Below, in pieces: positions 2 to 17,485 of a stretch of 54,976 nt of DNA. A program made the position numbers and the translations under genes. Within the stretch, counting starts at the first letter, position 1; each line of letters starts with the position of its first letter. The stretch is taken from assembly GCA_043821645.1 (NCBI GenBank), contig JBDRCO010000005.1, forward strand, positions 1-54,976. Reading direction: 5' to 3'. The notes under the pieces are model-generated. The model saw only the letters and a program-made list of their open reading frames with translations. It was not told the DNA's origin and ran no database searches. The DNA is from Pseudomonadota bacterium (GTDB taxonomy: Bacteria; Myxococcota; JACRCW01; JAFGSX01).

Positions 2-589
2 GGACGCACGCCCGTCGACGGCAGCCGCGTCGAGGTGGGCGACGCGGTGCTGGCCCTGCACAGCGTGGGCTTTCGCAGCAATGGCTTCTCGCTGGCGCGG
101 CGCATCCTGCAGCGCCAGTTCGGCGAGCGCTGGCACGAGGAAATTCTGCACGAGGGCGAGCGCGCGGGCCAGGCCCTGCTCACGCCCTGTCGCATCTACT
201 GCCGCGGCGTGTGCGAGGCTTTGGAGCAGGGGATCGACCTGCGCGGCATCGCCCACATCACGGGCGGCGGCATCCCTCACAAGTTCCGGCGCGTGCTGCG
301 GTTACGCGGACTCGGCGCCATGCTCGACGCCCTGCCCGCGCCCGCGCCCGCCATGGCCCGGGTGCAGGCCCTGGGCGGGGTGCCGGCGCGCCAGGCCTAC
401 ACCCTGTGGAACATGGGGACGGGCATGTTGCTGGTGCTGCCGCCGGCCCAGGTCGACGACGCTCTGGCCCTGCTCGCGGCGCAGGGCCTGCCAGGCCAGC
501 GCGCGGGCGAGATCGTGGCCGAGCCGGCCATCGTGCTTGAGGCGCGCGGCGCCGAGTCGGGGCGCCTGGAGTTTCTCGACGGCGCCTGA
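2..589 (+). CDS. purM: AIR synthetase (phosphoribosylformylglycinamidine cyclo-ligase), 5'-truncated by window edge
   Basis: Frame is open from base 2. PurM C-terminal motifs GDAVLALHSVGFRSNGFSLARR, LLTPCRIY, AHITGGG, WNMGTGM. Lies directly upstream of purL. Confidence 0.93.
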   Translation, partial: GRTPVDGSRVEVGDAVLALHSVGFRSNGFSLARRILQRQFGERWHEEILHEGERAGQALLTPCRIYCRGVCEALEQGIDLRGIAHITGGGIPHKFRRVLRLRGLGAMLDALPAPAPAMARVQALGGVPARQAYTLWNMGTGMLLVLPPAQVDDALALLAAQGLPGQRAGEIVAEPAIVLEARGAESGRLEFLDGA

Positions 590-641
590 TCGCGCTGGGT
601 TGTCATGGCCCGGCGCGCGCTGGGCCCCCGGGAGGTTCAGC

Positions 642-3641
642 GTGTCCGTGACAGCCACTCCCCTGCAGCTGGTGCAACTGGTCCCGCGCTCTGGCCACGA
701 CGACAGCTCCGGCGCGGCCGTGGTGCGCGCGGCGAAGCGCGACCTGGGCCTGGACCTGGGGCGGGTGCAGCACCACCGCCTGTACGCGGTCCATGGCGCC
801 ATCGAGGGCGCGCAGCTGCTGGCCGGCGCTCGCGCGGCCCTGGCCGATCCGCTGCTGCACGAGGTGCACCTGGGGGCACCCCACCTCGACACGGCCTACG
901 CGCGCTTTGCCCTGGTGGCGCGCCAGCCCGGCGTCACCGACGACGAGGGCGCCTCTGCTCGCACCGCGCTCGCCGATTACGCCGGCGTGGATCTCGACGG
1001 GGTGCAGGTCTTCGCCCAGGAGCTGTACCTGATCGAGCGCGCCCTCGACGACGCGGGCTTGCGCACGCTGGCACAGCAGGTCCTGGGCAATCCGCTGATT
1101 CACAAGTTCTTTCATGGCCCCCTGGCGGATTTCGCGCCCTACGCGCCAGTGGTGCAGCTCAGCGCCGACCCCACCGTGCACGGGGTGAGCCTGGAACGCG
1201 ACGATGCGCACCTGCTGCAGCTGTCGCAAGAACGCGTGCTGCACCTCGACCTGGCCGAGCTGCACGCCCTGCGCGCGCACTACCGGGAACCCGGGGTGCA
1301 GGCGCGGCGGCGCGAGGCGGACCTGCCTGTCGAGCCCACCGACGTCGAGCTCGAGGTCTTCGCCCAGACTTGGAGCGAGCACTGCAAGCACAAGGAGTTC
1401 AAGGCGCACATCGACGTGTACGACCGCGGCAGCGGCGAGCGCTTCGTGGTCGACGGCCTGTTCGACAGCTACATCCGCGCCACCACCCGCGAGGTGCAGC
1501 GCTTACTCGAAGCCGCGGGCCAGCGCTGGGTGATCAAGGTGTTCTCGGACAACGCGGGGGTGGTGCGCATCGACGACGAGCGCCTGTTCGTGTTCAAGGT
1601 CGAGACCCACAACACCCCCTCGGCCCTGGACCCCTACGGCGGCGCCATCACCGGCATCCTCGGCAACAACCGCGACCCCCTGGGCACGGGCGTCGGCGGC
1701 GCGCGCCTGCTGTTCAACACCGACGTGCTGTGCTTCGGGCCCCCCAACTGGAGCGAGCCCCTGCTGCCCGGGCAGCTGCACCCGGCACGGGTCATGCGCG
1801 GTGTGATCCAGGGCATAGCGGACGGCGGCAACAAAAGCGGCGTGCCCACGGTGCACGGTGCCCTGGTGTTCGACCCGCGCTATGCGGGCAAGCCCCTGGT
1901 CTACTGCGGCACCGGCGCCCTGCTCGACGCCGAGGTGGCCGGGCTGCCGTCGTGGGACAAGCGCATCGAACCCGGGGATCGCATCGTCATGGCCGGCGGC
2001 CGCGTGGGCCAGGACGGCATTCACGGGGCCACCTTCTCCAGCGCCGAGATCGACGAGAAGTCGCCGCGCAGCGCGGTGCAGGTGGGCTCGCCCTTCACCC
2101 AGAAGAAGCTCGGGGACTTTTTGCGCCGGGCCTGTGCGGCCGGGCTGGTGCGCTGCACCACGGACAACGGCGCCGGCGGGCTGTCGTCGTCGGTGGGCGA
2201 GCTGGCCCCCATCACCGGAGGCGCCCGTCTGCAGCTCGAGCAGGTGCCGCTCAAGTACCCGGGCCTGACCCCCTGGGAGATCCTGGTCAGCGAGTCCCAG
2301 GAGCGCATGACCCTGGCCGTGGACCCCGCCCACCTCGATGCCCTGCGCGCCTTCGCCGCCGAGGACGAGGTGGAGCTGAGCGACATCGGCGTGTTCGACA
2401 CCAGTGGCGTGCTCGAGGTGCGCCACGGCGCTCAGCGGGTAGCCCTGCTGGATCTGGCCTTCCTGCACGACGGAGTGCCGCGCAAGCACCTGGTGGCGGA
2501 GTGGACGCCACCGACGCTGCTGGCACCACAGCTGCCCGCGAACCTCGACCCGGGTCAGGTGCTGCTGGCACTGCTGGGCAGCCTCGACATCTGCTCGCGC
2601 GAGACGGTGATCCGGCGCTACGACCACGAGGTGCAGGGCCTCAGCGTGATCAAGCCACTCATGGGCTCGGCGGCGGGCTCACCCCAGGACGCCGCCGTGC
2701 TGCGCCTGGACCACGACGGTTACGCTGGCCTGGCCGTGAGCTGCGGCATCTGCCCGCGCTACGGCGATCTGGATCCCTACGCCATGAGCGCCCTGGCTTT
2801 TGACGAGGCCGTGCGCCAGATCATCGCGGTGGGTGGCCAGCTCCCGGACATCGAGCGGTCCGACGGCCCCTGGTGGTCGGCCTGCGACAACTTCTGCGTG
2901 CCGGACTCGGTGCAGCACCCCGAGCGTAACCCCGACGGCGCGCGCAAGCTCGCCGCCCTGGTGCAGATGTGCCAGGCCCTGTTCGACGTCGCCACCACCT
3001 ACCTGGTGCCGCTGACCTCGGGCAAGGACAGCATGAAGAACGACTTCACCGCGGGCGGGCGCAAGATCTCGGTGCCGCCCACGGTGCTGTACTCGGTGGT
3101 GGCTGGCATCCCGGACGTTCGGCGCACGGTGACCGCCGAGTTCAAGGCTGCCGGCGACCTGGTCTACCTTCTCGGCGAGACCCGCGACGAGCTCGGAGGC
3201 TCGGCCCTGCTGCGCCTGCACGACCAGCTCGGCGACCACGTGCCCGAGCTGCAGCCCCTGCTCGCGCGCAGCCTCTACGACAAGGTGGCCGCGGCCAACG
3301 CCGAGGGCCTGATCGCCTCGTGCCACGACCTGAGCGATGGCGGCCTGGCCGTGGCCCTGGCCGAATGCGGCTTCGGCCACCACCTGGGTGCTGACCTCGC
3401 GCTCGACGACGGGGGACTGGATGCCCTGCGCCAGCTGTTCAGCGAGAGCCCGGCCCGCTTCGTCGCCACGGTGCGGCCCGAGGACAGACGGCGCTTCGAG
3501 CAGGGCCTGGGCGACCGGGCAACTCTGTTGGGCAGGGTGACGGAAGAGCCGACGCTGCGCATCCGCCACCGCGGGGCTGTGGTGATCGAGCAGACCATCG
3601 ACGATCTCCACGCGGCCTGGTCGCGCGGCCTGGAGCTGTGA
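642..3641 (+). CDS. purL: FGAM synthase synthetase subunit with N-terminal PurS-like region (~999 aa)
   Basis: QTWSEHCKHK, KVETHNTPSALDPYGGAITG, DNGAGGLSSS, SESQERM, SGKDSMKND, HDLSDGGL. GTG start at 642 chosen after GGAGG (631-635). Confidence 0.95.
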   Translation: MSVTATPLQLVQLVPRSGHDDSSGAAVVRAAKRDLGLDLGRVQHHRLYAVHGAIEGAQLLAGARAALADPLLHEVHLGAPHLDTAYARFALVARQPGVTDDEGASARTALADYAGVDLDGVQVFAQELYLIERALDDAGLRTLAQQVLGNPLIHKFFHGPLADFAPYAPVVQLSADPTVHGVSLERDDAHLLQLSQERVLHLDLAELHALRAHYREPGVQARRREADLPVEPTDVELEVFAQTWSEHCKHKEFKAHIDVYDRGSGERFVVDGLFDSYIRATTREVQRLLEAAGQRWVIKVFSDNAGVVRIDDERLFVFKVETHNTPSALDPYGGAITGILGNNRDPLGTGVGGARLLFNTDVLCFGPPNWSEPLLPGQLHPARVMRGVIQGIADGGNKSGVPTVHGALVFDPRYAGKPLVYCGTGALLDAEVAGLPSWDKRIEPGDRIVMAGGRVGQDGIHGATFSSAEIDEKSPRSAVQVGSPFTQKKLGDFLRRACAAGLVRCTTDNGAGGLSSSVGELAPITGGARLQLEQVPLKYPGLTPWEILVSESQERMTLAVDPAHLDALRAFAAEDEVELSDIGVFDTSGVLEVRHGAQRVALLDLAFLHDGVPRKHLVAEWTPPTLLAPQLPANLDPGQVLLALLGSLDICSRETVIRRYDHEVQGLSVIKPLMGSAAGSPQDAAVLRLDHDGYAGLAVSCGICPRYGDLDPYAMSALAFDEAVRQIIAVGGQLPDIERSDGPWWSACDNFCVPDSVQHPERNPDGARKLAALVQMCQALFDVATTYLVPLTSGKDSMKNDFTAGGRKISVPPTVLYSVVAGIPDVRRTVTAEFKAAGDLVYLLGETRDELGGSALLRLHDQLGDHVPELQPLLARSLYDKVAAANAEGLIASCHDLSDGGLAVALAECGFGHHLGADLALDDGGLDALRQLFSESPARFVATVRPEDRRRFEQGLGDRATLLGRVTEEPTLRIRHRGAVVIEQTIDDLHAAWSRGLEL

Positions 3642-3642
3642 C

Positions 3643-4511
<869 letters not shown>

Positions 4512-4518
<7 letters not shown>

Positions 4519-6125
4519 TCCCCGTTCGCCGTGCCCTGCTCAGCGTCTCGGACAAGACCGGCCTCGAGCCCCTGGCGCGTGCCTTGGTCCAGCGCGGGGT
4601 CGAGCTCATCTCGACCGGCGGCACCCGCGCCGCGTTGACCGAGATGGGCCTCAAGACCCTCGAGATCTCCGAAGTGACGGGCAAACCCGAGGCCTTTGGC
4701 GGGCGCATGAAGACCCTGAGCTTCGAGGTGTGCAGCGCCCTGCTGTTCCACCGCGAGCGCGACGCTGACGAGGCCAGGGCCCTGAACATCGCGCCCATCG
4801 ATCTGGTGGTGGTCAACCTCTACCCCTTCGAGAAGAAGCGCGACCAGGGCGTGGACGACGAGACCCTGGTCGAGAACATCGACATCGGCGGCCCGACCCT
4901 GATCCGCGCCGCGGCCAAGAACCACCGCTTCGTGACCGTGCTCACCGATCCGGCCCAGTACCCCGCCGTGATCGAGGAGCTGGCCGCCCACGACGGAGCC
5001 CTGAGCCTGGAGACCCGGACCCGCCTGGCGCGCCAGGCCTACAACCGCACCGCTGACTACGACGCAGCCATCGCGGTCGAGCTCGACAGGCGCGCGGCTC
5101 AGCCATCGCTGCGCCTCGCCTTCGACGGCGGCCAGGTCCTGCGCTACGGCGAGAACAGCCATCAGCAGGCCACCCTGTATCGGCAGCGCGGAGCCAGCAC
5201 CTCGCTGTGCGACATGAAGATCCTGGGCGGCAAGCCCCTGAGCTTCAACAACCTGGTCGACCTGCAAGGCGCCCTGGACGCGGTGCGCGACCTCGGCCGC
5301 CCGGGCGTGGCCATCATCAAGCACACCAACCCGTGCGGTCTGGCCGTCGCCGACAGCTTGCGCGCCGCCTTCGAGGCGGCCTGGGCCGGGGACCCGGTGA
5401 GCGCCTTTGGCAGCGTCATCGCCTTCAACCGGCCGCTGGACGTCGAGACCGCGCGTTTTTTGAACCTGGACGCCGAGCCCAAGAGCGCGCGCAAGTTCGT
5501 CGAGATCGTCGCCGCGCCAGTCTTCTCGGACGAGGCCGTGGCCTACCTGCAGCAGCACAAGGACCTGCGCATCGTCGAGCTGGACCCGGCGCAGGCAGCC
5601 CTGAAGCGCGATGTGCGCGTGCTGCCGGGCGCCGCCCTGGAGCAGGACCCCGACGTCGAGCTGCTGGCCAAGCAGGACGTGGTCACCCAGGCCCAGCCCC
5701 CCGCCCTCGACGACGATCTGCTGCGCTTTGGCCTGGTCGCCACGCGCCAGGTCAAGAGCAACGCCATTGTGCTGGTGCGACGCAGGGGCGACGGCGTGGT
5801 GCAGCTGCTGGGCATGGGCGCTGGCCAGCCCAACCGCCTGAACTCGGTCAAGCTGGCGGTGGCCCGGGCGCGGGAGAACCTGGCCGCCGAGTACCAGGGT
5901 GGCTCTTCGGGCCTCGAGGCCCACATCGCGGCGCAGCTGGGCCTGGCCGTGCTGGTCAGTGACGCCTTCTTCCCCTTCCCCGACGGAGTCGAGGCCGCCG
6001 CCGCTGCGGGCGTGCGTTGCGTGTTCCAGCCGGGAGGTTCGATCCGGGACAAGGCCGTGATCAAGAAGTGTGATGAGCTGGGCGTGGCCATGGTGTTCAC
6101 GGGCCTGCGGCACTTCAGGCACTAG
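4512..6125 (+). CDS. purH: Bifunctional AICAR transformylase / IMP cyclohydrolase
   Basis: [78 protein letters not shown] 4512 follows GGAGG. Confidence 0.96.
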
Positions 6126-6216
6126 GAGGCGTCCTGCACGCCGCCACGACGTCGGGCCCGGTGCCGACACACGCACCCCTGGCCGCACGAGGCAGGATCA
6201 GGGATGAGGATCGCCG

Positions 6217-7611
6217 ATGAACAGCCTGTCCCGCGTCGAGACCCCCCAGCTGCGCACACTGCACCGCGGCAAGGTGCGCGATAGCTTTCGCGTCGACGAG
6301 CGAACCCGGCTCATCGTGGTGACCGACCGTCTGAGCGCGTTCGACCGCGTGCTCGATTCACCCATTCCGGGCAAGGGCGAGGTCCTCAACCAGCTCAGCG
6401 CCTGGTGGTTCGAGCAGACCCGCGATCTGGTGGGCAATCACCTCGTGCGCACGGTGGGACCGTCGGCGTCGCTGGTCCGCGAGGCCACTCCCATCAAGAT
6501 CGAAATGGTGGTTCGCGGCTACATCACGGGATCCATGTGGCGCGGCTACCTGCAAGGCGAGCGCAGCTTCTCCGGCACGCAGGTGCCCGACGGCCTGACC
6601 GAGAACCAGCAGCTTCCCGTCCCCATCGTCACGCCGACCACCAAGGAAAAGAACGACCGTCCCGTCACCCCGGCCCAGATCGTCGCCGAGGGCTGGGCCA
6701 GTGCTGCGCACTACGCCGCCATGCAGGACATCGCGCTCGCACTGTTCGAGCGTGGCCGCGAGCTGCTCGCCCAGCGCGGTATTCTGCTGGTCGACACCAA
6801 GTACGAGTTCGGACTCGTCGCGGGCGAGCTGGTGCTCATCGATGAGATCCACACCCCGGACTCGTCCCGCTTCTGGGACGCCGAGGCACATGCCCGTGAC
6901 CCTGGCGGCGTCGACTCCCTGGACAAGGAATTCGTGCGGCGCTGGCTCCTCGACCACCCCCAGGTGCTACAAGGTGAGCGGGTCGTGCTCCCCAACGACG
7001 TCATCGCCGGAACGGTGCAACGTTACCGGGACCTGTACCGGCGCATCACCGGTGCTGCACTGGTAGACAGCGACGAGCCGCCAGCCCCGCGCTTGCTGCG
7101 CGCTCTGGTGCGAGAGGGCCTGCTCCAGGACGGCTATGTGGCGGTGATCATGGGCTCTCCCGTCGACAGACCGCACTGCGACAAGATCCGCGAGGTGGTC
7201 GAACGCTACGCCATCTTCTGCGACCTGCGGGTGATGTCCGCCCACAAGAATGGTGAACGGGTTCTCGAGGCTGCCGACGAGTATAACGGGTGCATCGAAC
7301 CTGGGGCGGTGATCGCCGTGGCGGGCCGCTCCAACGGTCTGGGCGGAGCTCTTGCGGCCAACCTCAATCTGCCCGTGATCAACTCCCCGCCCTTCAAGGA
7401 CCAGCTCGACATGCTGACCAACATCAACTCGTCGCTGATGATGCCCAGCCGCACCCCTGCGGCCTCCGTCGTCGGCGCCGAGACCGCTGCCATCGCGGCC
7501 CTGCGCAGCCTCAACCTGCCCCGGCTCAAGCGGATGTTCGACGACGAGATCACCCGCACCAAGGCCGAATTGCTGGCCGCCGATGCCGAGGTCCGGGGGC
7601 GCGCGCCATGA
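6217..7611 (+). CDS. purC: Fused SAICAR synthetase (PurC) + class II AIR carboxylase (PurE); PAICS-like bifunctional enzyme
   Basis: N-terminal GKVRD, TDRLSAFD, PGKG, DTKYEFG, DEIHTPDSSRFW, DKEFVR. From ~7132: VAVIMGS..D, SAHK, AVAGRSNGLG, PVINSPP, SSLMMPS. One continuous frame. Confidence 0.93.
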   Translation: MNSLSRVETPQLRTLHRGKVRDSFRVDERTRLIVVTDRLSAFDRVLDSPIPGKGEVLNQLSAWWFEQTRDLVGNHLVRTVGPSASLVREATPIKIEMVVRGYITGSMWRGYLQGERSFSGTQVPDGLTENQQLPVPIVTPTTKEKNDRPVTPAQIVAEGWASAAHYAAMQDIALALFERGRELLAQRGILLVDTKYEFGLVAGELVLIDEIHTPDSSRFWDAEAHARDPGGVDSLDKEFVRRWLLDHPQVLQGERVVLPNDVIAGTVQRYRDLYRRITGAALVDSDEPPAPRLLRALVREGLLQDGYVAVIMGSPVDRPHCDKIREVVERYAIFCDLRVMSAHKNGERVLEAADEYNGCIEPGAVIAVAGRSNGLGGALAANLNLPVINSPPFKDQLDMLTNINSSLMMPSRTPAASVVGAETAAIAALRSLNLPRLKRMFDDEITRTKAELLAADAEVRGRAP

Positions 7612-7720
7612 TGTGTTGGCTGTTTCTACAAACAGGGAGGTCCACGCCGGCCTTGTCCCGGATGACGGGTCTGGTGAGGAGCTCGCGGGGTGCAGGCCTG
7701 GCCATGCCCGGAGAGACCTC

Positions 7721-9133
7721 ATGAGTGGGGATCGCATGTTTCAGGAGATCTCGCCCCTGGACGGGCGCTATCGCGAACGCGTCGGACACCTCGGTCGCTA
7801 CTTCTCGGAATACGGCCTGATGGCGGCGCGCCTGCGCGTCGAGCTCGACTACCTGCTGGCCCTCGATCGGACCGGTCTGTGGGAGCCCCTCAGCGCCGAG
7901 GAGCACGAGCGCGTGGACCGCGTGATGCGGGACTTCGGGCCCACGGACTTCCGGCTGATCAAGGAGATCGAGTCCATCACCCACCACGACGTCAAGGCCT
8001 GCGAACGCTTCCTGCGCGACAGCCTTAAGCTGCGCGACCCACACCGTGTGCACTTCGGTCTGACCAGCGAGGATGTCAACAACCTCGCCTACAACCTGCT
8101 GCTGCGCGCCTTCGTCGACGAGCAACTGCTGCCCAGACTCCGGTCCTTGATGGGGCTGCTGTGCGACCGTGCGGAGGAATGGGCCAGCGAGCCCTTTCCG
8201 ACCCGCACCCACGGCCAGCGCGCCACGCCCTCGACCGCGGGAAAGGAGCTGTCCGTCTTTTTGTCACGCCTGCTGCGCCAGAGCCAGCAGCTCGCGAGCT
8301 TTCGTTTCTCGGGCAAGCTCGGAGGCGCCACCGGCACCTACGCCGCCATGCTGTCGGCCTTTCCAGGCTACGACTGGATCCGCTTCGCCGAGGAATTCGT
8401 GCACGCGCTGGGCTTCGAACCCAACCCCGTGACCACCCAGATCGACGACCATGATCGCTGGGCCGAGCTGTTCGACCTGCTACGGCGCATCGCCAACGTC
8501 GTCATCGATCTGGACCGCGATCTGTGGAGCTATCTCTCGCTGGGTTGGTTGCGCGAGAGACCGGTCTCTGGCCAGGTCGGCTCCTCCACCATGCCGCACA
8601 AGGTGAACCCCATCCGCTTCGAGAACAGCGAGGGCAACCTGGAGCTGGCGGTGACTCTTCTCGGCGCCCTCGCCAACAAGCTCACGCGCTCGCGCATGCA
8701 GCGCGATCTGTCCGACAGCACAGTCTCCCGCAACATCGGCGTGGCCCTGAGCCACCTCTGGCTGGGGCTCGACGAGACCTGGCACGGACTGCAGCGGCTG
8801 GAACTCGACCGGGAACGCTGCCGGGCAGAACTCGACGACAGCCCGGAGCTGCTGGCAGAACCCATCCAGAGCATCTTGCGTGCGACGGGCCTGGGGCAGG
8901 ATCCCTACGAGCTGCTCCGCGAGCGCACCCGCGGGCAGCGTGTGACACGCGAAGCACTGATGGCCCTGGTCGACAGCCTGGCCGTGGGCGACAGGACCAA
9001 GCAGCGCATCCACGAGCTTCAGGTCCACGAGTATCTGGGCGTGGCGCCAGCGCTGTGCATGCGGGTCGTGCATCGGGCTCGACGCGAGCTTGGGGACGCG
9101 ACACCGCGGATCGACGACGGGGGGACGGGATGA
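7721..9133 (+). CDS. purB: Adenylosuccinate lyase
   Basis: ISPLDGRY, HDVKACE, HFGLTSEDVNN, RTHGQ, GSSTMPHKVNPIRFENSEGN, SRMQRDLSDS. ATG 7721 follows GGAGAG. Confidence 0.95.
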   Translation: MSGDRMFQEISPLDGRYRERVGHLGRYFSEYGLMAARLRVELDYLLALDRTGLWEPLSAEEHERVDRVMRDFGPTDFRLIKEIESITHHDVKACERFLRDSLKLRDPHRVHFGLTSEDVNNLAYNLLLRAFVDEQLLPRLRSLMGLLCDRAEEWASEPFPTRTHGQRATPSTAGKELSVFLSRLLRQSQQLASFRFSGKLGGATGTYAAMLSAFPGYDWIRFAEEFVHALGFEPNPVTTQIDDHDRWAELFDLLRRIANVVIDLDRDLWSYLSLGWLRERPVSGQVGSSTMPHKVNPIRFENSEGNLELAVTLLGALANKLTRSRMQRDLSDSTVSRNIGVALSHLWLGLDETWHGLQRLELDRERCRAELDDSPELLAEPIQSILRATGLGQDPYELLRERTRGQRVTREALMALVDSLAVGDRTKQRIHELQVHEYLGVAPALCMRVVHRARRELGDATPRIDDGGTG

Positions 9134-10380
9134 AGATCGTCATCGTGGGCTCGGGCGGCCGCGAACATGCCCTGGCCTGGAAGATTCATCACAGCCCGGA
9201 CCCGCACGAGGTGCTGGTTCTGCCCGGGAACGGAGGAACCCCGACGACCAGGTCTCTTCGAGCCGACGACGTCGACGGCATCCGTCGCTTCTGCGACGAG
9301 GTCGGAGCGGACCTGGTGGTGGTCGGTCCCGAGGTCTCTTTGGCCGCCGGGCTGGTCGACACCTTGCAGGCACACCAGCTGCGCGCCTTTGGACCCATCC
9401 GCGCCGCCACGCGCCTCGAGAGCAGCAAGGTCTGGGCACGTCTGTTCATGCGCCACCACGGCGTGGCCTGCCCCGAGTTCTGGAGCTTTGGCGACGTGGA
9501 TCAGGCGTCTGCCCACCTCGAACGTCTCGGTGGCGACGCGGTGCTCAAGTACGACGGTCTGGCCGCAGGCAAGGGAGTGTGGGTGTGCCGCGATCGCAGT
9601 GAGGCCCACCGCGCCCTGGTCGAGTTCACGCAGCGGCATGGCCACGATGCAGCCGGTGTGGTGGAGCGGCGCCTCGTGGGCAAGGAAGTGTCCCTGATAG
9701 GCCTGTGCGACGGAATGACCCTCGCCTTGCTCGCACCGTCACGCGATCACAAGCGCCTGCTCGACGACGACAAAGGCCCCAACACCGGCGGCATGGGCGC
9801 CTGCACGCCCGTGGCAGACCTTTCGCCTGCGCTGCTCAAGACAATACAGCGCGAGATCATCGCGCCCACCCTCGACGGCTTGCGTGCCGAGGGATTGCCC
9901 TACTGTGGCTTTTTGTACTTCGGCATCCTTCTCAGCGACGAAGGTCCGCGATTGCTGGAATACAATGCGCGCCTCGGCGATCCCGAGGCCGAGGTGGTGC
10001 TTCCCGCGCTCGACAGCGACCTGGTCGAGCTCATGCTGGCGAGTCTCGAAACACGTCTCGGGGACATGAAGGTCGCACTCTCCAGCGACGCCTTTATCGA
10101 CGTGGTCCTGGCGAGCAAGGGCTATCCCGGCGCCATGACTGCGGGGCACCCCATCCAGGGACTGGACACGCTACAGCCCGACACCCTGGTGTTCCACGCG
10201 GGCACCGCGCGCAGCAGCGAGGGCACGCTGGTCACGGCGGGCGGGCGGGTCCTCAACGTGGTTGCGCGCGGCGCGACGGTCGAACAGGCCCGCGAGCGGG
10301 TGTACGCCGAGGTCGAGAAGCTGAGCTTCGAGGGTATGACCTACCGGCGCGACATCGGCCGTGGCACAAAACGGACATGA
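9130..10380 (+). CDS. purD: Phosphoribosylamine-glycine ligase
   Basis: MKIVIVGSGGREHAL, LESSK, DGLAAGKGV, DHKR..GPNTGGMG, EYNARLGDPE. ATGA overlap with purB. Confidence 0.96.
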   Translation: MKIVIVGSGGREHALAWKIHHSPDPHEVLVLPGNGGTPTTRSLRADDVDGIRRFCDEVGADLVVVGPEVSLAAGLVDTLQAHQLRAFGPIRAATRLESSKVWARLFMRHHGVACPEFWSFGDVDQASAHLERLGGDAVLKYDGLAAGKGVWVCRDRSEAHRALVEFTQRHGHDAAGVVERRLVGKEVSLIGLCDGMTLALLAPSRDHKRLLDDDKGPNTGGMGACTPVADLSPALLKTIQREIIAPTLDGLRAEGLPYCGFLYFGILLSDEGPRLLEYNARLGDPEAEVVLPALDSDLVELMLASLETRLGDMKVALSSDAFIDVVLASKGYPGAMTAGHPIQGLDTLQPDTLVFHAGTARSSEGTLVTAGGRVLNVVARGATVEQARERVYAEVEKLSFEGMTYRRDIGRGTKRT

Positions 10381-11000
10381 AGGCCCGCCTCGCCATCCTG
10401 ATCTCGGGCCGTGGCTCCAACATGCGAGCCATCGTCGAAGCTTGTCAGGAGGGTATCCTGACGCCCCTGGCCGAAGCTGTGATCGTGCTGTGCAACAAGC
10501 CGGGCGCGGCAGGGCTCGAGGTGGCGCGGCAGGCCGGTGTGCCTGCGGTCGTGGTGCCAAGCAAGGGCAAGAGTCGAGAAGCCTTCGAACAGCAACTGCT
10601 GGCGACGCTGCAGCCACTCCGTATCGACCTCGTGGTGCTGGCCGGCTTCATGCGTGTGCTCACGCCGCTATTCGTACACGCCTACCCGCAGCGCATCATC
10701 AACATCCATCCCGCCGACACCCGCGCCTACCAGGGCGCACATGCCTACACCTGGGCTCACGAGAACAAGCTGACCACGACCTGGATCACGGTGCACCGGG
10801 TGGACGATGGCGTGGATACCGGCGAGGTGCTGGGGCGCGCCGAGGTCGACCTGCGAGGGGCGGTGGATCTCGAGGAGATCCAGCGGCGCGGGCTCGAGGT
10901 GGAACACCGGCTCTACCCCGAGGTCCTGCGCCAGCTGCTGTCGGGCGGGAGGATGACGCGAGCCACGGCGTTGGCGACCGAATCGCTGCGGACGAGGTGA
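10377..11000 (+). CDS. purN: GAR formyltransferase
   Basis: LISGRGSN, LAGFMRVL, INIHP, VHRVDDGVDTG. ATGA overlap with purD. Confidence 0.93.
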   Translation: MKARLAILISGRGSNMRAIVEACQEGILTPLAEAVIVLCNKPGAAGLEVARQAGVPAVVVPSKGKSREAFEQQLLATLQPLRIDLVVLAGFMRVLTPLFVHAYPQRIINIHPADTRAYQGAHAYTWAHENKLTTTWITVHRVDDGVDTGEVLGRAEVDLRGAVDLEEIQRRGLEVEHRLYPEVLRQLLSGGRMTRATALATESLRTR

Positions 11001-11062
11001 GGCCCGGGCGAGTTTCACTGTGACGGGGAGGGGGCGCCCAAGGGCTCCTTGAGAGGACGCGC

Positions 11063-12502
11063 ATGTGTGGGATCATCGGCCTGTTCGGTCACGACGACGT
11101 GGTGCCCGAGCTGGTATTCGGACTCACGGCTTTGCAGCACCGCGGCCAGGATGCGGCGGGCATCGTCACCTTTCGTAATGCCTTCAGGACCAAGAAGGGG
11201 CTCGGTCTGGTGGCCGACGTCATCGATGACGCGGACGTGGCACGCCTGGCCGCCCCCGTGGGCATTGGCCACGTGCGCTACTCCACGGTGGGTAAGAACG
11301 AGGTGCTGGACGCCCAGCCCGTCGCCATCAGCTACCCTCTGGGTATCGCCATGGCGCACAACGGCAACGTCACCAACTACGATGCCCTGCGCCGGCACCT
11401 GTACCAGGAGCACCACCGCCTCCTCGAGACCAGCTGTGATCTCGAGCTGATCCTGTACGCCTTCGCCAGCGAACTGCAGCAGAAGAACCTCAAGGCCCTG
11501 TCCGTTGACGACATCTTCAGCGCGGTGCAGGCGACCCAGCGCCGGGTCGAGGGCGCCTACTCGGCCATCACCCACATCGCGCACCACGGCTTTTTAGCTT
11601 TCGCGGATCCCTACGGACTGCGTCCCCTGGTCCTGGGTCAGCGCGACACGCCCGCGGGGCGGGTCTATGCCTTCGCCTCGGAGTCGACCTGCCTGGATCA
11701 CCTGGGCTTCGCCTACGTGCGCGATCTCCAGGCGGGCGAGGCTCTCTACATCGACGAGCAACGGGTCTTACACAGTCGTATCTGCCATCGTGAGCGGCCA
11801 GCCTTCTGCGTGTTCGAGTACATTTACTTTGCGCGCGAGGATTCGCGCTTGCATCACAAGCTTGTCGCCGGTGAGCGGGTGAAGATGGGCCGGGCACTGG
11901 CCAAGCCCTTTCGTGCCACCGGGCTCAAGCCGGACATCGTCATCGACGTACCCAGCTCTGCCTACTTCTTTGCCTCGGGTCTGGCCGAGGAGCTCGGCGT
12001 GCCCTACCGCCGTGGCTTCTCGAAGAACCGCCACATAGGACGCAGCTTCATCTCCCCCACCCAGATCCTTCGCGAGCGCATGGTTCGCGCCAAGCTCAAC
12101 CCGATCCGGGAGGTCATCGAGGGCAAGAAGGTTGCGGTGGTCGACGACAGCATCGTGCGCGGCACCACCTCGCGCCACCTGGTCAAGCTGCTGCGCGAGG
12201 CCGGTGCGAGCGAGATCTACTTCGTGTCCGCCTCGCCGCCGGTGGTATCTCCCTGCGTGTATGGCATCGACATGTCGATCCGGCGCGAGATGATCGCGGC
12301 CAACGCCACGGTGCAGGAGATCCAGGCCGATCTCGGCGCTGATGCCCTGATCTACCAGCGCCTCGAGGATCTCCGTGGCCTCGCCGACGGCCAGGGCTGG
12401 TGCGATGCCTGCTTCTCGGGTGAGTATCCCACCGGAGTCAGCGTACAGGTCCTCGACGCCATCGAGAACGAGCGCAGCGTCGCCAAGCAGGAGAGAGGCT
12501 GA
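11063..12502 (+). CDS. purF: Amidophosphoribosyltransferase
   Basis: MCGIIG Ntn nucleophile, LQHRGQD, GHVRYST, HNGN, CVFEYIYFAR, VDDSIVRGTT, CDACFSGEYP. Confidence 0.97.
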   Translation: MCGIIGLFGHDDVVPELVFGLTALQHRGQDAAGIVTFRNAFRTKKGLGLVADVIDDADVARLAAPVGIGHVRYSTVGKNEVLDAQPVAISYPLGIAMAHNGNVTNYDALRRHLYQEHHRLLETSCDLELILYAFASELQQKNLKALSVDDIFSAVQATQRRVEGAYSAITHIAHHGFLAFADPYGLRPLVLGQRDTPAGRVYAFASESTCLDHLGFAYVRDLQAGEALYIDEQRVLHSRICHRERPAFCVFEYIYFAREDSRLHHKLVAGERVKMGRALAKPFRATGLKPDIVIDVPSSAYFFASGLAEELGVPYRRGFSKNRHIGRSFISPTQILRERMVRAKLNPIREVIEGKKVAVVDDSIVRGTTSRHLVKLLREAGASEIYFVSASPPVVSPCVYGIDMSIRREMIAANATVQEIQADLGADALIYQRLEDLRGLADGQGWCDACFSGEYPTGVSVQVLDAIENERSVAKQERG

Positions 12503-12508
12503 GGGCAC

Positions 12509-13774
12509 ATGTTCCTGCGCGACCTGCAGTGGCTTGATGAAGACGGCGCCTGGCAGCGCGGCGATGTGCGGGTACACGCGGGTCGCATCGTGGAGCTCGG
12601 CCCTGCGCTCGACCATCGTGGCGACGAGGTCCTCGCGGGCGACGGCATGAAGCTCGTACCCGGTGCCATCGATCCCCACACCCACCTGCGGGCGCCTGGC
12701 AAGAGCCGCGCCGAGGGCGTCGCCCGGGGCAGCCGCGCGGCCCTGGCCGGCGGTGTGACGACACTCCTGGACATGCCCAACAACCGCCCACCGACGTCGA
12801 CAGCGGGACGCCTGGAGCAGAAGAGGCAGATCTTCAGACGGCAGTGCCGCACCCACTGGGGGCTGCACGGACATGCTTCTGCCAGTGGCTCCTTCCTCGA
12901 TCCCCGAGGCATCCCGGCCATCAAGATCTACATGGCTAAGAGCTCGGAGCTTCCGGCGCTGGTTGACGTCGACGCGTTGAGCCGGGTGTTCATGCACTAC
13001 CCCGTGGTGGCTGTTCACGCCGAAGACGAGCGGTGCTTTGGCAGTGGGCCACGACATGGTGCGCGACGGCCACGTTCGGCCGTGGTGCGAGCCCTGGACA
13101 GCCTGGAACGCGCCCTGCTGCGGCTTCCGGAAGATCGGCGGCCTCGCCTGGTGCTGTGTCACGCCACCACCGTCGAGGAGATCAGCTGGTTGCGCAGGCT
13201 CAAGGTCCAGGGCTTCGATGTGTGGGGCGAGACCTGCCCTCACTACCTCGCCTTCACCGAGGACGACGTGGAGCGGTCGAGCGCACGCCTGCAGGTCAAC
13301 CCGCCCATTCGTCTGGCCGAGGATCGTGCGGCCCTTCGCGCGGCCCTGGTCGACGGCACCCTGGATTTCATCGCCACCGATCATGCACCACATCTTCCGG
13401 GCGAGAAGCTGGGCCCGAATCCGCCCTCGGGTATCGCCAGCATCGAGTGGCTGCTCCCCTTTGCGACCCAGCTGGTGGAGCAGGGCCTGATCGGCTGGCG
13501 CCGCCTGACCGAGCTGTGTACGCGCAACGCAGCGGCGTGCTACCGCATCCCGGGTCGAGGTGCCATTGCCCCCGGGCAGGTGGCGGACCTGGTAGTGCTG
13601 GCTCCGCGCGATCGCGTCGAGCCTCGCCACACCGTGGTCACCGGCGCGGGCTGGACGCCCTACTGCTTCGAGCAGTTCGACCACGCGGTGTACGCGACTC
13701 TCGTCGCGGGTCGCGTGGCCTATCTCGACGGGACCTGGCCGCCTGGCGTACTGGGAGAGGAGTTGTACACATGA
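12509..13774 (+). CDS. pyrC: Dihydroorotase
   Basis: PGAIDPHTHLR, GGVTTLLDMPN, KIYM, HAED, ETCPHYL, VNPPIR, IATDHAPH, plus pyr operon context. Confidence 0.88.
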   Translation: MFLRDLQWLDEDGAWQRGDVRVHAGRIVELGPALDHRGDEVLAGDGMKLVPGAIDPHTHLRAPGKSRAEGVARGSRAALAGGVTTLLDMPNNRPPTSTAGRLEQKRQIFRRQCRTHWGLHGHASASGSFLDPRGIPAIKIYMAKSSELPALVDVDALSRVFMHYPVVAVHAEDERCFGSGPRHGARRPRSAVVRALDSLERALLRLPEDRRPRLVLCHATTVEEISWLRRLKVQGFDVWGETCPHYLAFTEDDVERSSARLQVNPPIRLAEDRAALRAALVDGTLDFIATDHAPHLPGEKLGPNPPSGIASIEWLLPFATQLVEQGLIGWRRLTELCTRNAAACYRIPGRGAIAPGQVADLVVLAPRDRVEPRHTVVTGAGWTPYCFEQFDHAVYATLVAGRVAYLDGTWPPGVLGEELYT

Positions 13775-14397
13775 CAGATCTTGCGCGCGAACTGGTGAAG
13801 CTGTTCAGCGAGGCAGGAGCCCTCCGCTTCGGCCTGTTCACTCTCAAGTCGGGCGCGCGTTCGCCCTTCTTCTTCAACCTCGGAGATGTGGCGCGCGGTC
13901 CACACCTGCAACGCATGGGTGCCCTGCTCGCCGATGGGGTGCAGCAGCTCTTCCCCGACGCCACCCTGCTGTTTGGCCCCGCCTACAAGGGTATCGCCCT
14001 GGTGGCTCTCGCCGCGGCCGAGCTCAGTCGTCGCCACGGCCGCGACGTGGGTACCTGCTACAACCGCAAGGAGCACAAGGCACATGGCGAGGGCGGTTCC
14101 CTGGTCGGTTGCACCCCCGGCCCCGCGGACCGCCTGTTGCTGGTCGACGACGTCGTCACCTCGGGACAGACCAAGCGCGAGGCCATCGAGCTGCTGCAGC
14201 GCGAGGTGACCGTCGAACCCGCGGGCATGCTGGTGTTCGTGGACCGTCGCCTCGAAGGTGATGCCGAGCAGAGCATCGCCGGGGTTCCCCTGCGCGCCCT
14301 CGCCACGCTACCCAGCATCGCGGATGCCCTGGAGGAGAGCGGCGACGCCCGGGCGCGGGTGTTGCGCAATTACTACGAACGCAAGCCCTGGGAATGA
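13771..14397 (+). CDS. pyrE: Orotate phosphoribosyltransferase
   Basis: FGLFTLKSGARSPFFFN, FGPAYKGI, NRKEHKAHGEGG, LVDDVVTSG. ATGA overlap with pyrC. Confidence 0.95.
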   Translation: MTDLARELVKLFSEAGALRFGLFTLKSGARSPFFFNLGDVARGPHLQRMGALLADGVQQLFPDATLLFGPAYKGIALVALAAAELSRRHGRDVGTCYNRKEHKAHGEGGSLVGCTPGPADRLLLVDDVVTSGQTKREAIELLQREVTVEPAGMLVFVDRRLEGDAEQSIAGVPLRALATLPSIADALEESGDARARVLRNYYERKPWE

Positions 14398-14419
14398 GCC
14401 CGAGACGACGGAGAAGACA

Positions 14420-15112
14420 GTGAATCAGCGCCAGATCATCCCCGCCCTCGACGTCACCGATCTGACCGTGGCCACCGCAGTGGTCGAGGCCGTGGGCCAG
14501 CATCCCGGCATCTACGGCTTCAAGCTCGGCTTCAGCCTGGGTCTATCCCATGGCCTGCCGCGCGTGGTCGAAACCATCCGTCGCCACTCAAACAAACCCG
14601 TGATCTATGATCACCAGAAGGCCGCCACGGATATCCCGGACACCGGTGCCCTATTCGCGCGCGTGCTCAAGCAGGCCGGCGTTGACGAAGCCATCCTGTT
14701 TCCACAGGCCGGTCCCGAGACCCTGCGCGCCTGGGCCTCGGCCCTTGTCGACGAAGGTCTGACCACCATCGTGGGCGGCGCCATGACCCACCGCGCCTAT
14801 CTGCACAGCGAGGGCGGCTTTCTGGTCGACAGCGCGGCCACCGACATCTACCGGCTGGCCTATGCCGCCGGGGTGCGTCGCTTCGTCATGCCCCTGACCA
14901 AACCCGACCTGGTGCGTCGTTTGTGGCAGCAGGCGGGCCTCGACGACAGCTGCATCCTGTACTCGCCGGGCTACGGCGCGCAGAAGGGACAGCTGGCGCC
15001 TTTCTCCTGGGTGCCTGCACACCTTGTCATCGTGGGCCGCGCCCTGCTCCAGGCTGCGGATCCGGTGGCCTACATCGACGGCGTCCTCGACGAGTGGAAG
15101 GGGCAGCCATGA
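14420..15112 (+). CDS. pyrF: Orotidine-5'-phosphate decarboxylase (variant active-site motif)
   Basis: IIPALDV, GFKLG, YDHQKAATDIPDT, SPGYGAQKG, IVGRAL. GTG start follows GGAGA. Located between pyrE and pyrB. Confidence 0.85.
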   Translation: MNQRQIIPALDVTDLTVATAVVEAVGQHPGIYGFKLGFSLGLSHGLPRVVETIRRHSNKPVIYDHQKAATDIPDTGALFARVLKQAGVDEAILFPQAGPETLRAWASALVDEGLTTIVGGAMTHRAYLHSEGGFLVDSAATDIYRLAYAAGVRRFVMPLTKPDLVRRLWQQAGLDDSCILYSPGYGAQKGQLAPFSWVPAHLVIVGRALLQAADPVAYIDGVLDEWKGQP

Positions 15113-16029
15113 AGCGCGACCTGGTCTCCATCGATGACCTGAGCCTGGAACAGATCGAGCGCTACCTGCTGCTCGCCGGCACCGTCGAGAACACCCCCGA
15201 GCGCGACAAGGCGCAGCTGCTGCTGGGGCGCCTGCTCATGGTGCTGTTCTTCGAGCCCTCGACGCGCACGCGCCTGTCCTTCGAGGCCGCCATGAAGAAG
15301 CTCGGCGGCTCGGTGGCGGGCTTCTCGGAGACCGCGGCCACCTCGGTGTCCAAGGGCGAGAGCTTTTTGGACACCATACGCACCGTCGAGCAGTACGCGG
15401 ATGCCCTGGTCATCCGCCACCCCAAGGAGGGGGCAGCGCGCCTGGCCTCGGAGAACTGCCAGCTGCCCATCATCAACGCCGGCGACGGCGCCAACCAGCA
15501 CCCGTCGCAGACACTGCTCGACCTGTACACCATTCAGAAATTCTTCGGCCGCCTCAACGGCCTCAAGATCGCCCTGGTCGGAGACCTACGCTACTCGCGT
15601 ACCGTGTACTCACTTCAGAATGCGCTGCGTCGCTACTCGGACAACCGCTTCGTGCTGGTATCGCCGCCAAGCCTGCGCCTGGCCGAGCACCTGCAGGTCG
15701 TCCACCCCGGCGAGAGCATCAGGTTCCGCGAGACCGTGGATCTGCGCGAGGCCGTGCGCGACTGCGACCTGCTGTACATGACGCGCATCCAGAAGGAGCG
15801 CTTCGTCGACCTGCTCGAGTACGAGAAGGTCAAGGATGCCTACGTCCTCGACGCGGCCATGCTGCGCGAGGCCCAGACCCACCTCCGCGTCATGCATCCC
15901 CTGCCCCGGGTCAACGAGATCTCTCCCGACGTGGACGCGACACCGCACGCGGGCTACTTCGAGCAGGTGCGCAATGGCCTGTTCATGCGCCAGGCCATCC
16001 TGCTCAACCTGCTGGGGGTGATGCTGTGA
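15109..16029 (+). CDS. pyrB: Aspartate carbamoyltransferase catalytic subunit
   Basis: FFEPSTRTRLSF, SKGES, NAGDGANQHPSQTLLD, GDLRYSRT, YMTRIQKER, MHPLPRVNEI. Confidence 0.97.
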   Translation: MKRDLVSIDDLSLEQIERYLLLAGTVENTPERDKAQLLLGRLLMVLFFEPSTRTRLSFEAAMKKLGGSVAGFSETAATSVSKGESFLDTIRTVEQYADALVIRHPKEGAARLASENCQLPIINAGDGANQHPSQTLLDLYTIQKFFGRLNGLKIALVGDLRYSRTVYSLQNALRRYSDNRFVLVSPPSLRLAEHLQVVHPGESIRFRETVDLREAVRDCDLLYMTRIQKERFVDLLEYEKVKDAYVLDAAMLREAQTHLRVMHPLPRVNEISPDVDATPHAGYFEQVRNGLFMRQAILLNLLGVML

Positions 16030-16535
16030 GCTACGACGCCAAGCACCTCTTGATCCCGAAGATCGAGAACGGCACCGTCATCGACCACATCCCGGCCGGG
16101 CTGGGTGTGGCGATCCTGGAGATCTTGCAGGCCCACGACGATCTCAACGAGATCACCACGGCGGTGGGACTCAACCTGTCGTCCAGCAAGATGGGCCGCA
16201 AGGACATGATCAAGCTGTGGCAGGCCGAGCTCAGCGAGCACCTGGTGCAGCACCTGTCGCTCATCGCTCCCGGCGCCACCATCAAGCGCGTGCGCGACTT
16301 TCAGGTCGACAAGCGATACGTGGTGTCCTTGCCGGCTCTGCTCGACAACCTCGTGCGCTGCCTCAATCCCAACTGCATGACCAATGTCGAGAAGGCCGTG
16401 CGCACGCGCTTCTGTCGCGTTGACGAGGAACGACGGCTGTATCGCTGCGCGTATTGCGAGCGCGTGTTCAGGCTGCAGCACCTGGAGCCCATCTTGCCTG
16501 CTCCGCGGCCATCCGCCGTGACGGAGCTCGCATGA
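16026..16535 (+). CDS. pyrI: Aspartate carbamoyltransferase regulatory subunit
   Basis: IENGTVIDHIPAG, SKMGRKD, Zn ligands CLNPNC and CAYC. GTGA overlap with pyrB. Confidence 0.94.
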   Translation: MSYDAKHLLIPKIENGTVIDHIPAGLGVAILEILQAHDDLNEITTAVGLNLSSSKMGRKDMIKLWQAELSEHLVQHLSLIAPGATIKRVRDFQVDKRYVVSLPALLDNLVRCLNPNCMTNVEKAVRTRFCRVDEERRLYRCAYCERVFRLQHLEPILPAPRPSAVTELA

Positions 16536-17485
16536 GTTCGACCGGCCGGCCCACTCACACGCTCGATCCGAGGCTCGCCGTGGACCTGGCTGGGATGCGA
16601 CTGCGGACGCCTCTGGTGCTGGCCTCGGGGATCCTGGGAACCACCGCCTCGTCGCTGCGCCGCGTCGCGATGGCCGGTGCCGGCGCTGTCACCGCCAAGA
16701 GCGTGAGCAAGACGCCACGCAAGGGCCACCCCAACCCCACCGTGGTACCCCTGCCCCATGGCATGCTCAATGCCGTCGGGTTGAGCAACCCCGGTGCCGA
16801 GGCCTTCGTCGAGGAGCTTCTGGCCTACCAGATGGACGCTCCTGCGCCTCTGATCGCATCCATCTTCGCCGCCAGTGTCGAGGAGTTCAGCGAGGTTGCG
16901 GGCATCGTGGCCAGAGCTCGCCCCGACCTCATCGAAGTCAATGTGTCCTGCCCCAACGTGCACAGTGAATTCGGCCAGCCCTTTGGCGCGGATCCCGTGG
17001 CCTGCGGGGAGATCACGGCGGCGGTCAAGCAGGCCGCTGGCACCATCCCGGTAGCCATCAAGCTCACCGTGCAATGCCCCTCGATAGCGGCCGTGGCCAG
17101 GGCCTGCGAGAAGGCAGGCGCCGACGTCATCACGGCCATCAACACCGTGGGCCCGGGCATGCACATCGACGTCAACCTGCGACGTCCGGAGCTGAGCAAC
17201 AAGGTCGGCGGCCTGTCCGGGCCTGCCATCCTGCCCGTCGCGGTGCGCGCGGTGTACGAGATCGCCGCAGCGGTGAACATCCCCATCATCGGCACTGGTG
17301 GCGTGAGCAGCGCAGAAGATGCTCTGCAACTCATCCTGGCCGGAGCCCGCGCCGTGGGCCTGGGCACGGCCGTGTGGTCCGCGGGCCTCGAAGTGTTTGA
17401 CGACATCTGCTGCGGGCTGTCCGCGTACCTGGACGCCCACGACCAGAATAGCCTGGCTGGGCTGGTGGGAGCCGCCCATGCGTGA
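16532..17485 (+). CDS. pyrD: Dihydroorotate dehydrogenase family 1B catalytic subunit
   Basis: LASG, GMLNAVGLSNPG, EVNVSCPNV, AINT, GGLSGPAILP, IIGTGG. ATGA overlap with pyrI. Confidence 0.95.
   Translation: MSSTGRPTHTLDPRLAVDLAGMRLRTPLVLASGILGTTASSLRRVAMAGAGAVTAKSVSKTPRKGHPNPTVVPLPHGMLNAVGLSNPGAEAFVEELLAYQMDAPAPLIASIFAASVEEFSEVAGIVARARPDLIEVNVSCPNVHSEFGQPFGADPVACGEITAAVKQAAGTIPVAIKLTVQCPSIAAVARACEKAGADVITAINTVGPGMHIDVNLRRPELSNKVGGLSGPAILPVAVRAVYEIAAAVNIPIIGTGGVSSAEDALQLILAGARAVGLGTAVWSAGLEVFDDICCGLSAYLDAHDQNSLAGLVGAAHA

Follow-up and report, generated by a model that had tools for sequence, protein, structure and literature searches.

Introduction

Can a bacterium carry a purine enzyme of the same design as animal PAICS, and if so, where does such an enzyme come from? 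This question is raised by a gene at positions 6217-7611 of the stretch of DNA analyzed here, referred to below as the window, which is 54,976 nucleotides (nt) long and corresponds to positions 1-54,976 of contig JBDRCO010000005.1 from a bacterium placed in Myxococcota by GTDB. PMC3261824, PMC10484210 and PMC9376930 describe bacteria as using PurK together with class I PurE and animals as using PAICS; in PMC3261824, fused PurCE is termed "common in eukaryotes." A sequence-only reading of the window had proposed that the gene joins PurC, the phosphoribosylaminoimidazole-succinocarboxamide (SAICAR) synthetase, to an animal-type class II PurE.

Our analysis indicates with high confidence that the gene product is a bifunctional class II PurE/long-type PurC enzyme which belongs to a family independent of animal PAICS, is its genome's sole candidate for the conversion of 5-aminoimidazole ribonucleotide (AIR) to the 4-carboxylated product (CAIR), and most likely goes back to an old transfer. 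The C-terminal class II PurE domain would form CAIR directly from AIR and CO2, with no need for ATP, PurK or N5-carboxyaminoimidazole ribonucleotide (N5-CAIR), and the N-terminal long-type PurC domain would convert CAIR, aspartate and ATP into SAICAR, so that the two predicted reactions are consecutive steps of the de novo purine pathway. The enzyme may form an octamer of the PurE type and may channel CAIR between its two halves. The gene belongs to a widespread prokaryotic exception to the textbook division between PurK with class I PurE on the one hand and PAICS on the other.

Results

The window encodes an intact PurC-PurE fusion

The gene and its parts are as follows.

6217..7611, plus strand: purC-purE fusion gene, 464 amino acids (aa), ATG start
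6217..7101, plus strand: PurC half, long-type SAICAR synthetase (EC 6.3.2.6), residues 1-295, with C-terminal helices that act as linker
7132..7608, plus strand: PurE half, predicted class II AIR carboxylase (EC 4.1.1.21), residues 306-464
Key residues of the PurE half: M312-G313-S314..D317, S341-A342-H343-K344 and V368-A369-G370-R371-S372-N373-G374-L375
C-terminal helix of the PurE half: residues 435-461

In the list of open reading frames (ORFs) with translations, positions 6217-7611 of the plus strand form a single ORF with no internal stop, and the stop-to-stop frame begins merely 9 nt before the ATG. The Pfam domain SAICAR_synt covers residues 15-249 of the protein (E 5e-70) and AIRC covers residues 308-434 (E 1e-29). 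The latter places the start of PurE near nt 7138, in agreement with the position of about 7132 proposed earlier. The motifs quoted in the sequence-only reading are present in the translation, and the human PAICS strings that it set beside them agree with the alignment to 2h31. Among NCBIfam models, the PurC equivalog NF010568 recognizes the protein at 257.8 bits (cut-off 251), and the PurE model TIGR01162 reaches 87.4 bits against a cut-off of 149.6, which leaves the PurE half below threshold.

As a check of the junction, public contigs from four runs were aligned on window positions 6000-7800. A single 1,798-nt contig of run X1, possibly the source sample itself, spans positions 6109-7800 without a gap, and a 151-nt contig of run X4 (word depth 1.98), which comes from a separate study, spans the junction at 7027-7177, also gap-free. 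No insertions or deletions on 6000-7800 are listed in any of the four runs, and no stop or frameshift between the domains was found in these contigs. Within the gene body, X1 and X4 have a single difference in common: C>A at the third position of a codon (7131), which works out as Asp305Glu at the domain boundary and is probably a strain variant. The contigs of X2-X4 are fragmentary and of low depth, and the parts of the gene that they leave uncovered carry no evidential weight. The 464-aa ORF, the two Pfam domains and the gap-free junction contigs confirm that positions 6217-7611 encode an intact fusion of SAICAR synthetase and an AIR carboxylase domain in one frame, as had been stated from the sequence.

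The fusion and animal PAICS contain different types of PurC

The best PDB sequence matches of the PurC half are yeast Ade1 (E 1e-49) and Mycobacterium abscessus PurC (E 2e-45). In Foldseek comparisons, this half aligns with yeast Ade1 and M. abscessus PurC at template-modeling (TM) scores of 0.81-0.84 and 33-38% identity, with values of 0.82-0.84 for yeast Ade1. An AlphaFold2 monomer model calculated from an alignment of 21 family sequences (pLDDT 89.6, pTM 0.86) superposes with its PurC half on yeast Ade1 and with its PurE half on Treponema denticola PurE (TM 0.79-0.83). Superposition of the whole chain of this monomer model on human or insect PAICS is poor, with a root-mean-square deviation (rmsd) of 22-23 Å, which hints that the modeled arrangement of the domains differs from PAICS.

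Against the family PurC profile, the PurC halves of animal PAICS reach 20-40 bits, compared with 272-538 bits for long PurCs derived from the loci. Short-type PurC sequences were sampled by way of locus L035, assigned to "Methanosarcinales." Among 81 genomes (0.5-1.3 Mb) of its class that were searched for a stand-alone PurC of the PAICS type, the sole strong match was L112, a stand-alone archaeal-type PurC of 245 aa that is 39% identical to the PurC half of sponge PAICS. Through L112, 658 matches in the short-type family were obtained, and 16 short-type rows were added to the PurC tree. In this tree, a branch of 1.66+2.54 with support 100 separates the short type, with 16 short stand-alone and 8 animal rows, from the long type, with 20 long stand-alone, 13 window-family and 12 other prokaryotic fusion rows. 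The PurC half of the fusion lies inside this long-type set of 45 rows, and those of animal PAICS are nested among short-type rows with Shimodaira-Hasegawa-like (SH-aLRT) supports of 99 and 97. The PDB matches and the tree thus bear out the earlier view that the PurC half is of the long, yeast Ade1-like type and not of the animal PAICS type.

A PurE tree of 143 domains was built from the window sequence, 20 PurEs from relatives and the filtered top 150 of 1,183 matches from an exhaustive search (E<=1e-3), with at least 115 profile positions matched and at least 128 aa required. In this quick tree, the window falls into a clade of 77 rows of prokaryotic fusions (support 98). The second class II group (47 rows, support 83) unites stand-alone class II PurEs with the rows that have PAICS-like motifs, among them the UniRef PAICS entry P0174 and the sponge ADE2-like protein cluster P0271. 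In a 62-row PurE tree, the window family (support 99/95) and the animal clade (97/95) are likewise apart when the topology is left free.

Did both fusions nevertheless descend from one, with animal PAICS derived from the prokaryotic fusion or the reverse, and with PurC diverged or swapped? Several results speak for such a shared origin and weigh against independence. The domain order, PurC followed by PurE, is the same in both. For the PurE half, a joint clade of the window family and animal PAICS is 24.4 log-likelihood (lnL) units worse but is not rejected by the approximately unbiased (AU) test (p-AU 0.079), so that the case for independence comes from the PurC half. A first AU test of the PurC half, performed without short-type rows, even favored the joint clade (11.1 lnL units better, p-AU 0.69). 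We set this outcome aside as an artefact because that data set contained long-type sequences only and offered the divergent animal branch no proper attachment. The re-run with short-type rows reversed the outcome, in that the joint PurC clade was 237 lnL units worse and was rejected (p-AU 3.65e-57). Given this rejection, the position of the animal PurC halves among stand-alone short PurCs such as L112, and the grouping of the animal PurE clade with stand-alone class II PurEs rather than within the 77-row clade of the window, we consider a shared origin very unlikely. A single ancient fusion followed by a later swap of PurC is conceivable in the strict sense, but much less economical.

The separate phylogenies of the two domains that had been proposed as a check thus place PurC with the long type, apart from animal PAICS, and PurE on the class II side. 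Because the joint PurC clade is rejected once short-type rows are present, the results support that the two fusions recruited different PurC subfamilies and that the prokaryotic fusion is independent of animal PAICS. The suggestion of a convergent fusion is thereby upheld by the PurC half; for the PurE half alone, a joint clade is disfavored without being rejected.

The PurE half is of the class II type, and no purK was detected in the genome

The two classes of PurE are discriminated by the 40s loop, SAHK versus SAHR, and by the 70s loop, AG(R)SN(G/A)L versus AGGAAHL, and this agrees with the motifs observed here. As a class I reference set, we used PurEs encoded directly beside purK in genomes of the same phylum (L084-L091, n=8), all eight of which contain SAHR.P and AGGAAHLPGM. 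In the corresponding positions, the PurE half of the fusion has SAHKNGER and AGRSNGLGGA; the sequences in rows of the animal PAICS type are SAHKGPDE and AGRSNGLGPV. The class I AG.AAHL loop is therefore absent from the domain, as noted earlier.

When PDB sequences were ranked with residues 296-464, insect PAICS (4ja0, 1.8e-22) and human PAICS (2h31, 2.5e-20) came first, and T. denticola class II PurE (3rg8) followed with 8.7e-15. Chains titled N5-CAIR mutase reached 1.3e-8 or worse, and chains with a generic PurE name were intermediate (1o4v, 2.7e-12, with SAHR in its alignment; 3lp6, 7.4e-10; 2ywx, 1e-9). In the PurE tree of 143 domains, a branch of 1.09 with an SH-aLRT of 100 splits 127 SAHK-type rows, which include the window and animal PAICS, from class I. 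A grouping of the domain with class I was thus looked for by phylogeny, and the domain falls on the class II side. PMC9376930 lists 18 residues in a model of the human AIR carboxylase active site, 16 of which are identical in the fusion within the ungapped part of the 2h31 alignment (M312, G313, S314, D317, S341, A342, H343, K344 and V368 through L375). The human general base His303 corresponds to His343, and Lys304 to Lys344.

The genome comprises 7.07 Mb in 140 contigs and is 94.7% complete, with an estimated contamination of 3.95%. No purK was detected in the scan of this 94.7%-complete assembly, the best match to TIGR01161 reaching 40.5 bits against a cut-off of 318.4; we rejected this match as purK, given that it is the biotin carboxylase gene accC, which adjoins efp. 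The earlier remark that the visible pur cluster contains no purK thus holds and extends to the whole genome. Two AIRC-family matches are present in the genome, namely the fusion gene and L002 (G000:C23:121087-124467). L002 has an N-terminal extension and loops that read AGMEGAL, neither of the two PurE motifs; it was rejected as a PurE on account of these loops. We take L002 to be LarB-like, and the adjoining PP-loop protein, whose sole Pfam match is Asn_synthase, is presumably LarE-like. metK also adjoins L002 on C23, and this neighborhood may be a nickel-pincer cofactor locus rather than a source of PurE. No class I purE or other purE was detected among the AIRC-family profile matches of this 94.7%-complete genome. 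For the AIR-to-CAIR step, the fusion gene is thus the single candidate in this genome.

Motifs, active-site residues, PDB ranking and phylogeny all agree with the animal-type class II PurE proposed from the sequence, and they support that the PurE half would act as a class II AIR carboxylase that uses CO2 and is independent of PurK. Three points count against this assignment. It was made from sequence, phylogeny and gene content; two residues of the phosphate-binding loop are not those of human PAICS, with Pro315 in place of Thr275 and Val316 in place of Ser276; and in a 94.7%-complete genome of 140 contigs, purK could sit in an assembly gap. The same incompleteness leaves some room for a functional class I N5-CAIR mutase that would use spontaneously formed N5-CAIR or an unrecognized or unassembled PurK. 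In addition, PMC3261824 (Brown et al.) describes some PurEs as hard to classify and E. coli PurE as working without PurK at high bicarbonate. We nevertheless regard such a mutase as very unlikely, considering AGRSNGL in place of AGGAAHL, SAHK in place of SAHR, the separation from class I by a branch with support 100, the 16 of 18 active-site residues matched to the human model of PMC9376930, and the genome scan without purK.

The fusion gene lies in a near-complete purine operon

The class II PurE/long-type PurC fusion is surrounded by the following genes.

14..589, plus strand: purM, 3' part (AIR synthetase), cut at the contig end; ORF 2-589, GC content at third codon positions (GC3) 0.92
606..3641, start approximate, plus strand: purL (formylglycinamidine ribonucleotide [FGAM] synthase, AIRS-type); FGAR-AT_linker, AIRS, AIRS_C
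3586..4518, start approximate, plus strand: purQ (FGAM synthase glutaminase); GATase_5, E 3.5e-70
4503..6125, plus strand: purH (aminoimidazole carboxamide ribonucleotide formyltransferase/inosine monophosphate cyclohydrolase); AICARFT_IMPCHas, E 3.7e-91, and MGS
7721..9133, start approximate, plus strand: purB (adenylosuccinate lyase); Lyase_1 and ASL_C
9130..10380, plus strand: purD (glycinamide ribonucleotide [GAR] synthetase); GARS_N, GARS_A, GARS_C
10383..10946, plus strand: purN (GAR formyltransferase); TIGR00639, 168.3 bits, cut-off 150.1
11024..12502, plus strand: purF (amidophosphoribosyltransferase); GATase_6/7 and Pribosyltran

The resulting order, purM-purL-purQ-purH-purCE-purB-purD-purN-purF, is that of a near-complete operon. 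The 5' part of purM sits at the end of contig C20, where positions 6-198 of TIGR00878 correspond to C20:60319-60918, and positions 164-331 of the same model correspond to C5:14-520 in the 3' part. In the open frame 3-3641 that contains purL, tblastn matches in other loci start at about residue 202, and the purH start was taken as the Met ahead of the MGS domain. As worked out from Pfam coordinates, the purD ATG and the purB stop overlap by 4 nt.

Genes of pyrimidine biosynthesis follow directly after purF on the same strand (12503-18296; a pyrC-like amidohydrolase, pyrF, pyrB, pyrD and a pyrK-like gene), so that purine and pyrimidine genes form a combined supercluster of about 18 kb. A pyrC-like gene likewise follows purF in the Calditrichota locus L019. 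The minus strand of the window is open over a very long stretch at 20026-28902, in a frame of about 2,959 aa with a coding-like GC3 of 0.85.

Might the PurE half be a dead scaffold that oligomerizes PurC, with carboxylation taking place elsewhere or the organism being a purine auxotroph? The activity of the PurE half is a prediction, and related Hymenobacter genes have lost the PurE domain (see below), both of which would fit this reading. The alignment of 21 family members, with a mean column identity of 70%, has invariant catalytic and binding residues; moreover, genes for the remaining pathway steps surround the fusion gene, and the genome scans yielded no other candidate enzyme. We therefore regard a dead scaffold as very improbable and retain an active class II PurE half as the preferred reading.

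The fusion family is large and present in many phyla

A word-indexed search returned 7,999 relatives of the fusion protein. Each of the 120 listed carries both domains (459-500 aa, 55-100% identity), and the closest non-self sequences among these matches share 72, 69 and 68% identity with it. Named sources among the 120 include Deltaproteobacteria, Caldithrix and Cloacimonetes metagenome-assembled genomes (MAGs). The homologues carry the source names "SAICAR synthase" or "AIR carboxylase family protein," and naming after PurC alone is explained by the TIGR01162 score below its cut-off. The family motifs MGS..D, SAHKNGE, AG.SNGLGGAL and PPF are present in the fusion protein, and the PurC halves of the window family form a clade of 21 rows with support 97.

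Among 80 loci kept from genomes of named species, an ORF check identified 12 as truly fused (L004-L013, L019, L021). By record title, these belong to about nine phyla, with Cloacimonadota, Verrucomicrobiota, Chlorobiota, Deltaproteobacteria, Atribacteria, Bacteroidetes/Hymenobacter, Bipolaricaulota, Calditrichota and one "Enterobacterales" MAG represented. The order purL-purQ-purH-purCE-(purB)-purD-purF flanks 10 of the 12, at about 45-60% identity per gene (L004-L006, L008-L011, L013 and L019, as well as L012, there without purH); at L007 and L021, no flanking pur genes were found within the DNA available around the loci. Seven loci of lower identity that appeared fused by tblastn (L020, L022, L024, L025, L026, L037, L039) were rejected, since the ORF check resolved each into separate adjacent purC and class II-like purE genes. 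Such pairs look like the unfused state.

Further architectures were observed in a Pfam scan of 132 of the top 150 PurE-domain matches, after removal of 16 sequences below 140 aa and 2 very long proteins. Most of the 132 are PurC-PurE proteins. There are also 17 PurN-PurC-PurE triple fusions of about 600-690 aa (P0148, P0160, P0163, P0175, P0182, P0194, P0201, P0202, P0206, P0213, P0218, P0219, P0222, P0239, P0241, P0259, P0270), of which P0160 has "viral metagenome" as its only source name, and one protein of 525 aa with the reverse order PurE-PurC (P0260). P0186, with the source name Candidatus Tiddalikarchaeum (a DPANN archaeon), is a PurC-PurE fusion with the animal-like loop GLGPV; in the PurE tree, it is placed in the prokaryotic part.

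Within Hymenobacter, the PurE domain appears to be in the process of loss. A MAG of the Hymenobacter group (L012) has an intact fusion. In Hymenobacter sp. BT190 (L014; 6001-7315), a 309-aa purC ends exactly at the would-be start of PurE and is followed by an unrelated ORF of 127 aa. The match is limited to the PurC half in L015, L016 (H. glacieicola) and L018, and in L017:6058-7363, what is left of PurE lies in a different frame, its motifs are altered, and masked bases occur near the junction. With support 99, the PurCs of all five loci L014-L018 nest with that of L012, which is fused.

That assembly or binning falsely joined two genes or organisms into a single frame, for which one might point to the 140 contigs and the estimated contamination, has a negligible probability, since contigs of two studies cross the junction gap-free, the same fused frame occurs in 12 independent assemblies, all 120 listed homologues are colinear and the composition of the contig is typical of the genome.

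The rarity of the fusion that the sequence-only reading had implied did not stand, given that all 120 listed homologues are fused and that the operon occurs in many phyla. The window gene is a typical further member of a large fusion family and, as such, an ordinary find. The family is visible in databases and under-annotated; within a limited collection of papers and search terms, we found no published description of a bacterial PurC-PurE fusion, and neither a name nor biochemistry for the family.

Origin of the fusion gene in this genome

Forty relatives were sampled, 1 from the same family, 2 from the same class and 37 from the same phylum. The fused form was found in none of the 40 searched. 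They carry separate long PurCs, and their PurEs are class I-like, often encoded beside purK, or in one family stand-alone and class II-like. purK was above the cut-off in 14 of 41 genomes. In the family just mentioned, which belongs to the same phylum and has genomes of about 3 Mb, a stand-alone class II-like purE lies directly beside a weak purC (Pfam 80-87 bits; G009:C20:6444-7683 and G018:C63:29730-30948), with no purK over the cut-off. Unfused class II PurE therefore exists within the phylum.

The window purH shares 44-52% identity with the full-length matches of the relatives and 51-60% with its counterparts in fused operons from other phyla. This suggests that the operon entered the lineage from outside. 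The highest identities to the window in purH (60%) and PurC (59-60%) were observed for L006, a MAG titled "uncultured Enterobacterales bacterium," which contains the same operon; its title may reflect mis-binning or a mislabel.

Some points tell against a transfer. Identity percentages do not amount to a phylogenetic test, and the two closest relatives are uninformative, one (G001) being 82% complete and also without a purH match, and the other (G002) having purH without a purC or purE match. A recent transfer, or a mis-binned contig, was rejected by the typical composition of the sequence. The GC content of the contig is 0.667, compared with a genome mean of 0.671; by tetranucleotide distance, the contig ranks 12 of 70 contigs of at least 20 kb; and the chunk that contains the operon lies at the 62nd percentile of 261 chunks. 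On balance, we lean toward acquisition of the fusion gene and its operon by horizontal transfer long ago.

Discussion

It is likely that prokaryotes invented the PAICS design independently of animals, and probably more than once, as long PurC-PurE, PurN-PurC-PurE and PurE-PurC proteins. Fusion would then have been selected repeatedly, and the family would provide a natural replicate for comparison with PAICS. If so, the advantage of joining AIR carboxylation to SAICAR synthesis lies most plausibly in handing over CAIR, which can decarboxylate. The question of CAIR channeling has been raised for human PAICS in PMC8988938. An independent fusion offers a comparative system for this question, and so large a family could serve to compare both substrate channeling and quaternary architecture with the human enzyme.

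There are also practical consequences. Because NCBIfam recognizes the PurC half only, pathway reconstructions can call genomes such as this one purE/purK-deficient, and many uncultured lineages, annotated by their PurC half alone, may have been wrongly scored as lacking these genes. Because humans lack PurK and class I PurE, both are of interest as targets for antibacterial agents (PMC10484210). Bacteria with the fusion enzyme would escape inhibitors of PurK or class I PurE.

Among known systems, animal PAICS (human 2H31 and 6YB8; Bombyx mori 4JA0) is similar to the fusion in having PurC at the N terminus and class II PurE at the C terminus, with both activities, which are predicted for the fusion. 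It contains the best PDB sequence match of the fusion's PurE half and, judged by the residues given in PMC9376930, 16 of 18 active-site residues are shared. PurK is not needed by PAICS, as is predicted here for the fusion. By contrast, the PurC half of PAICS is of the short type and that of the fusion is of the long yeast/bacterial type; PAICS has 425 aa and the fusion 464 aa; the PurE halves belong to different class II sub-clades in the free trees; the whole chains superpose poorly (rmsd 22-23 Å for the monomer model); and the fusion gene lies in a bacterial operon.

T. denticola PurE (3RG8/3RGG), reportedly characterized as a bacterial class II AIR carboxylase by Tranchimand et al. in 2011, shares with the fusion the class II motifs SAHK and AGRSN.L and a bacterial origin, and it resembles the PurE half in fold (Foldseek TM 0.79-0.83). 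It is a stand-alone protein of 159 aa, whereas the PurE of the fusion is joined to PurC, and stand-alone class II PurEs mostly fall into the other class II group in a tree that does not include the T. denticola sequence. Yeast Ade1 (1A48, 1OBG, 2CNQ) and M. abscessus PurC (3R9R, 6YVQ) are long-type enzymes and the best matches of residues 1-295; they are monofunctional and lack a PurE domain, whereas the fusion has both domains. The prokaryotic PurN-PurC-PurE and PurE-PurC proteins combine a class II-type PurE with a long-type PurC as the fusion does, but they have extra or reordered domains and occupy other parts of both domain trees.

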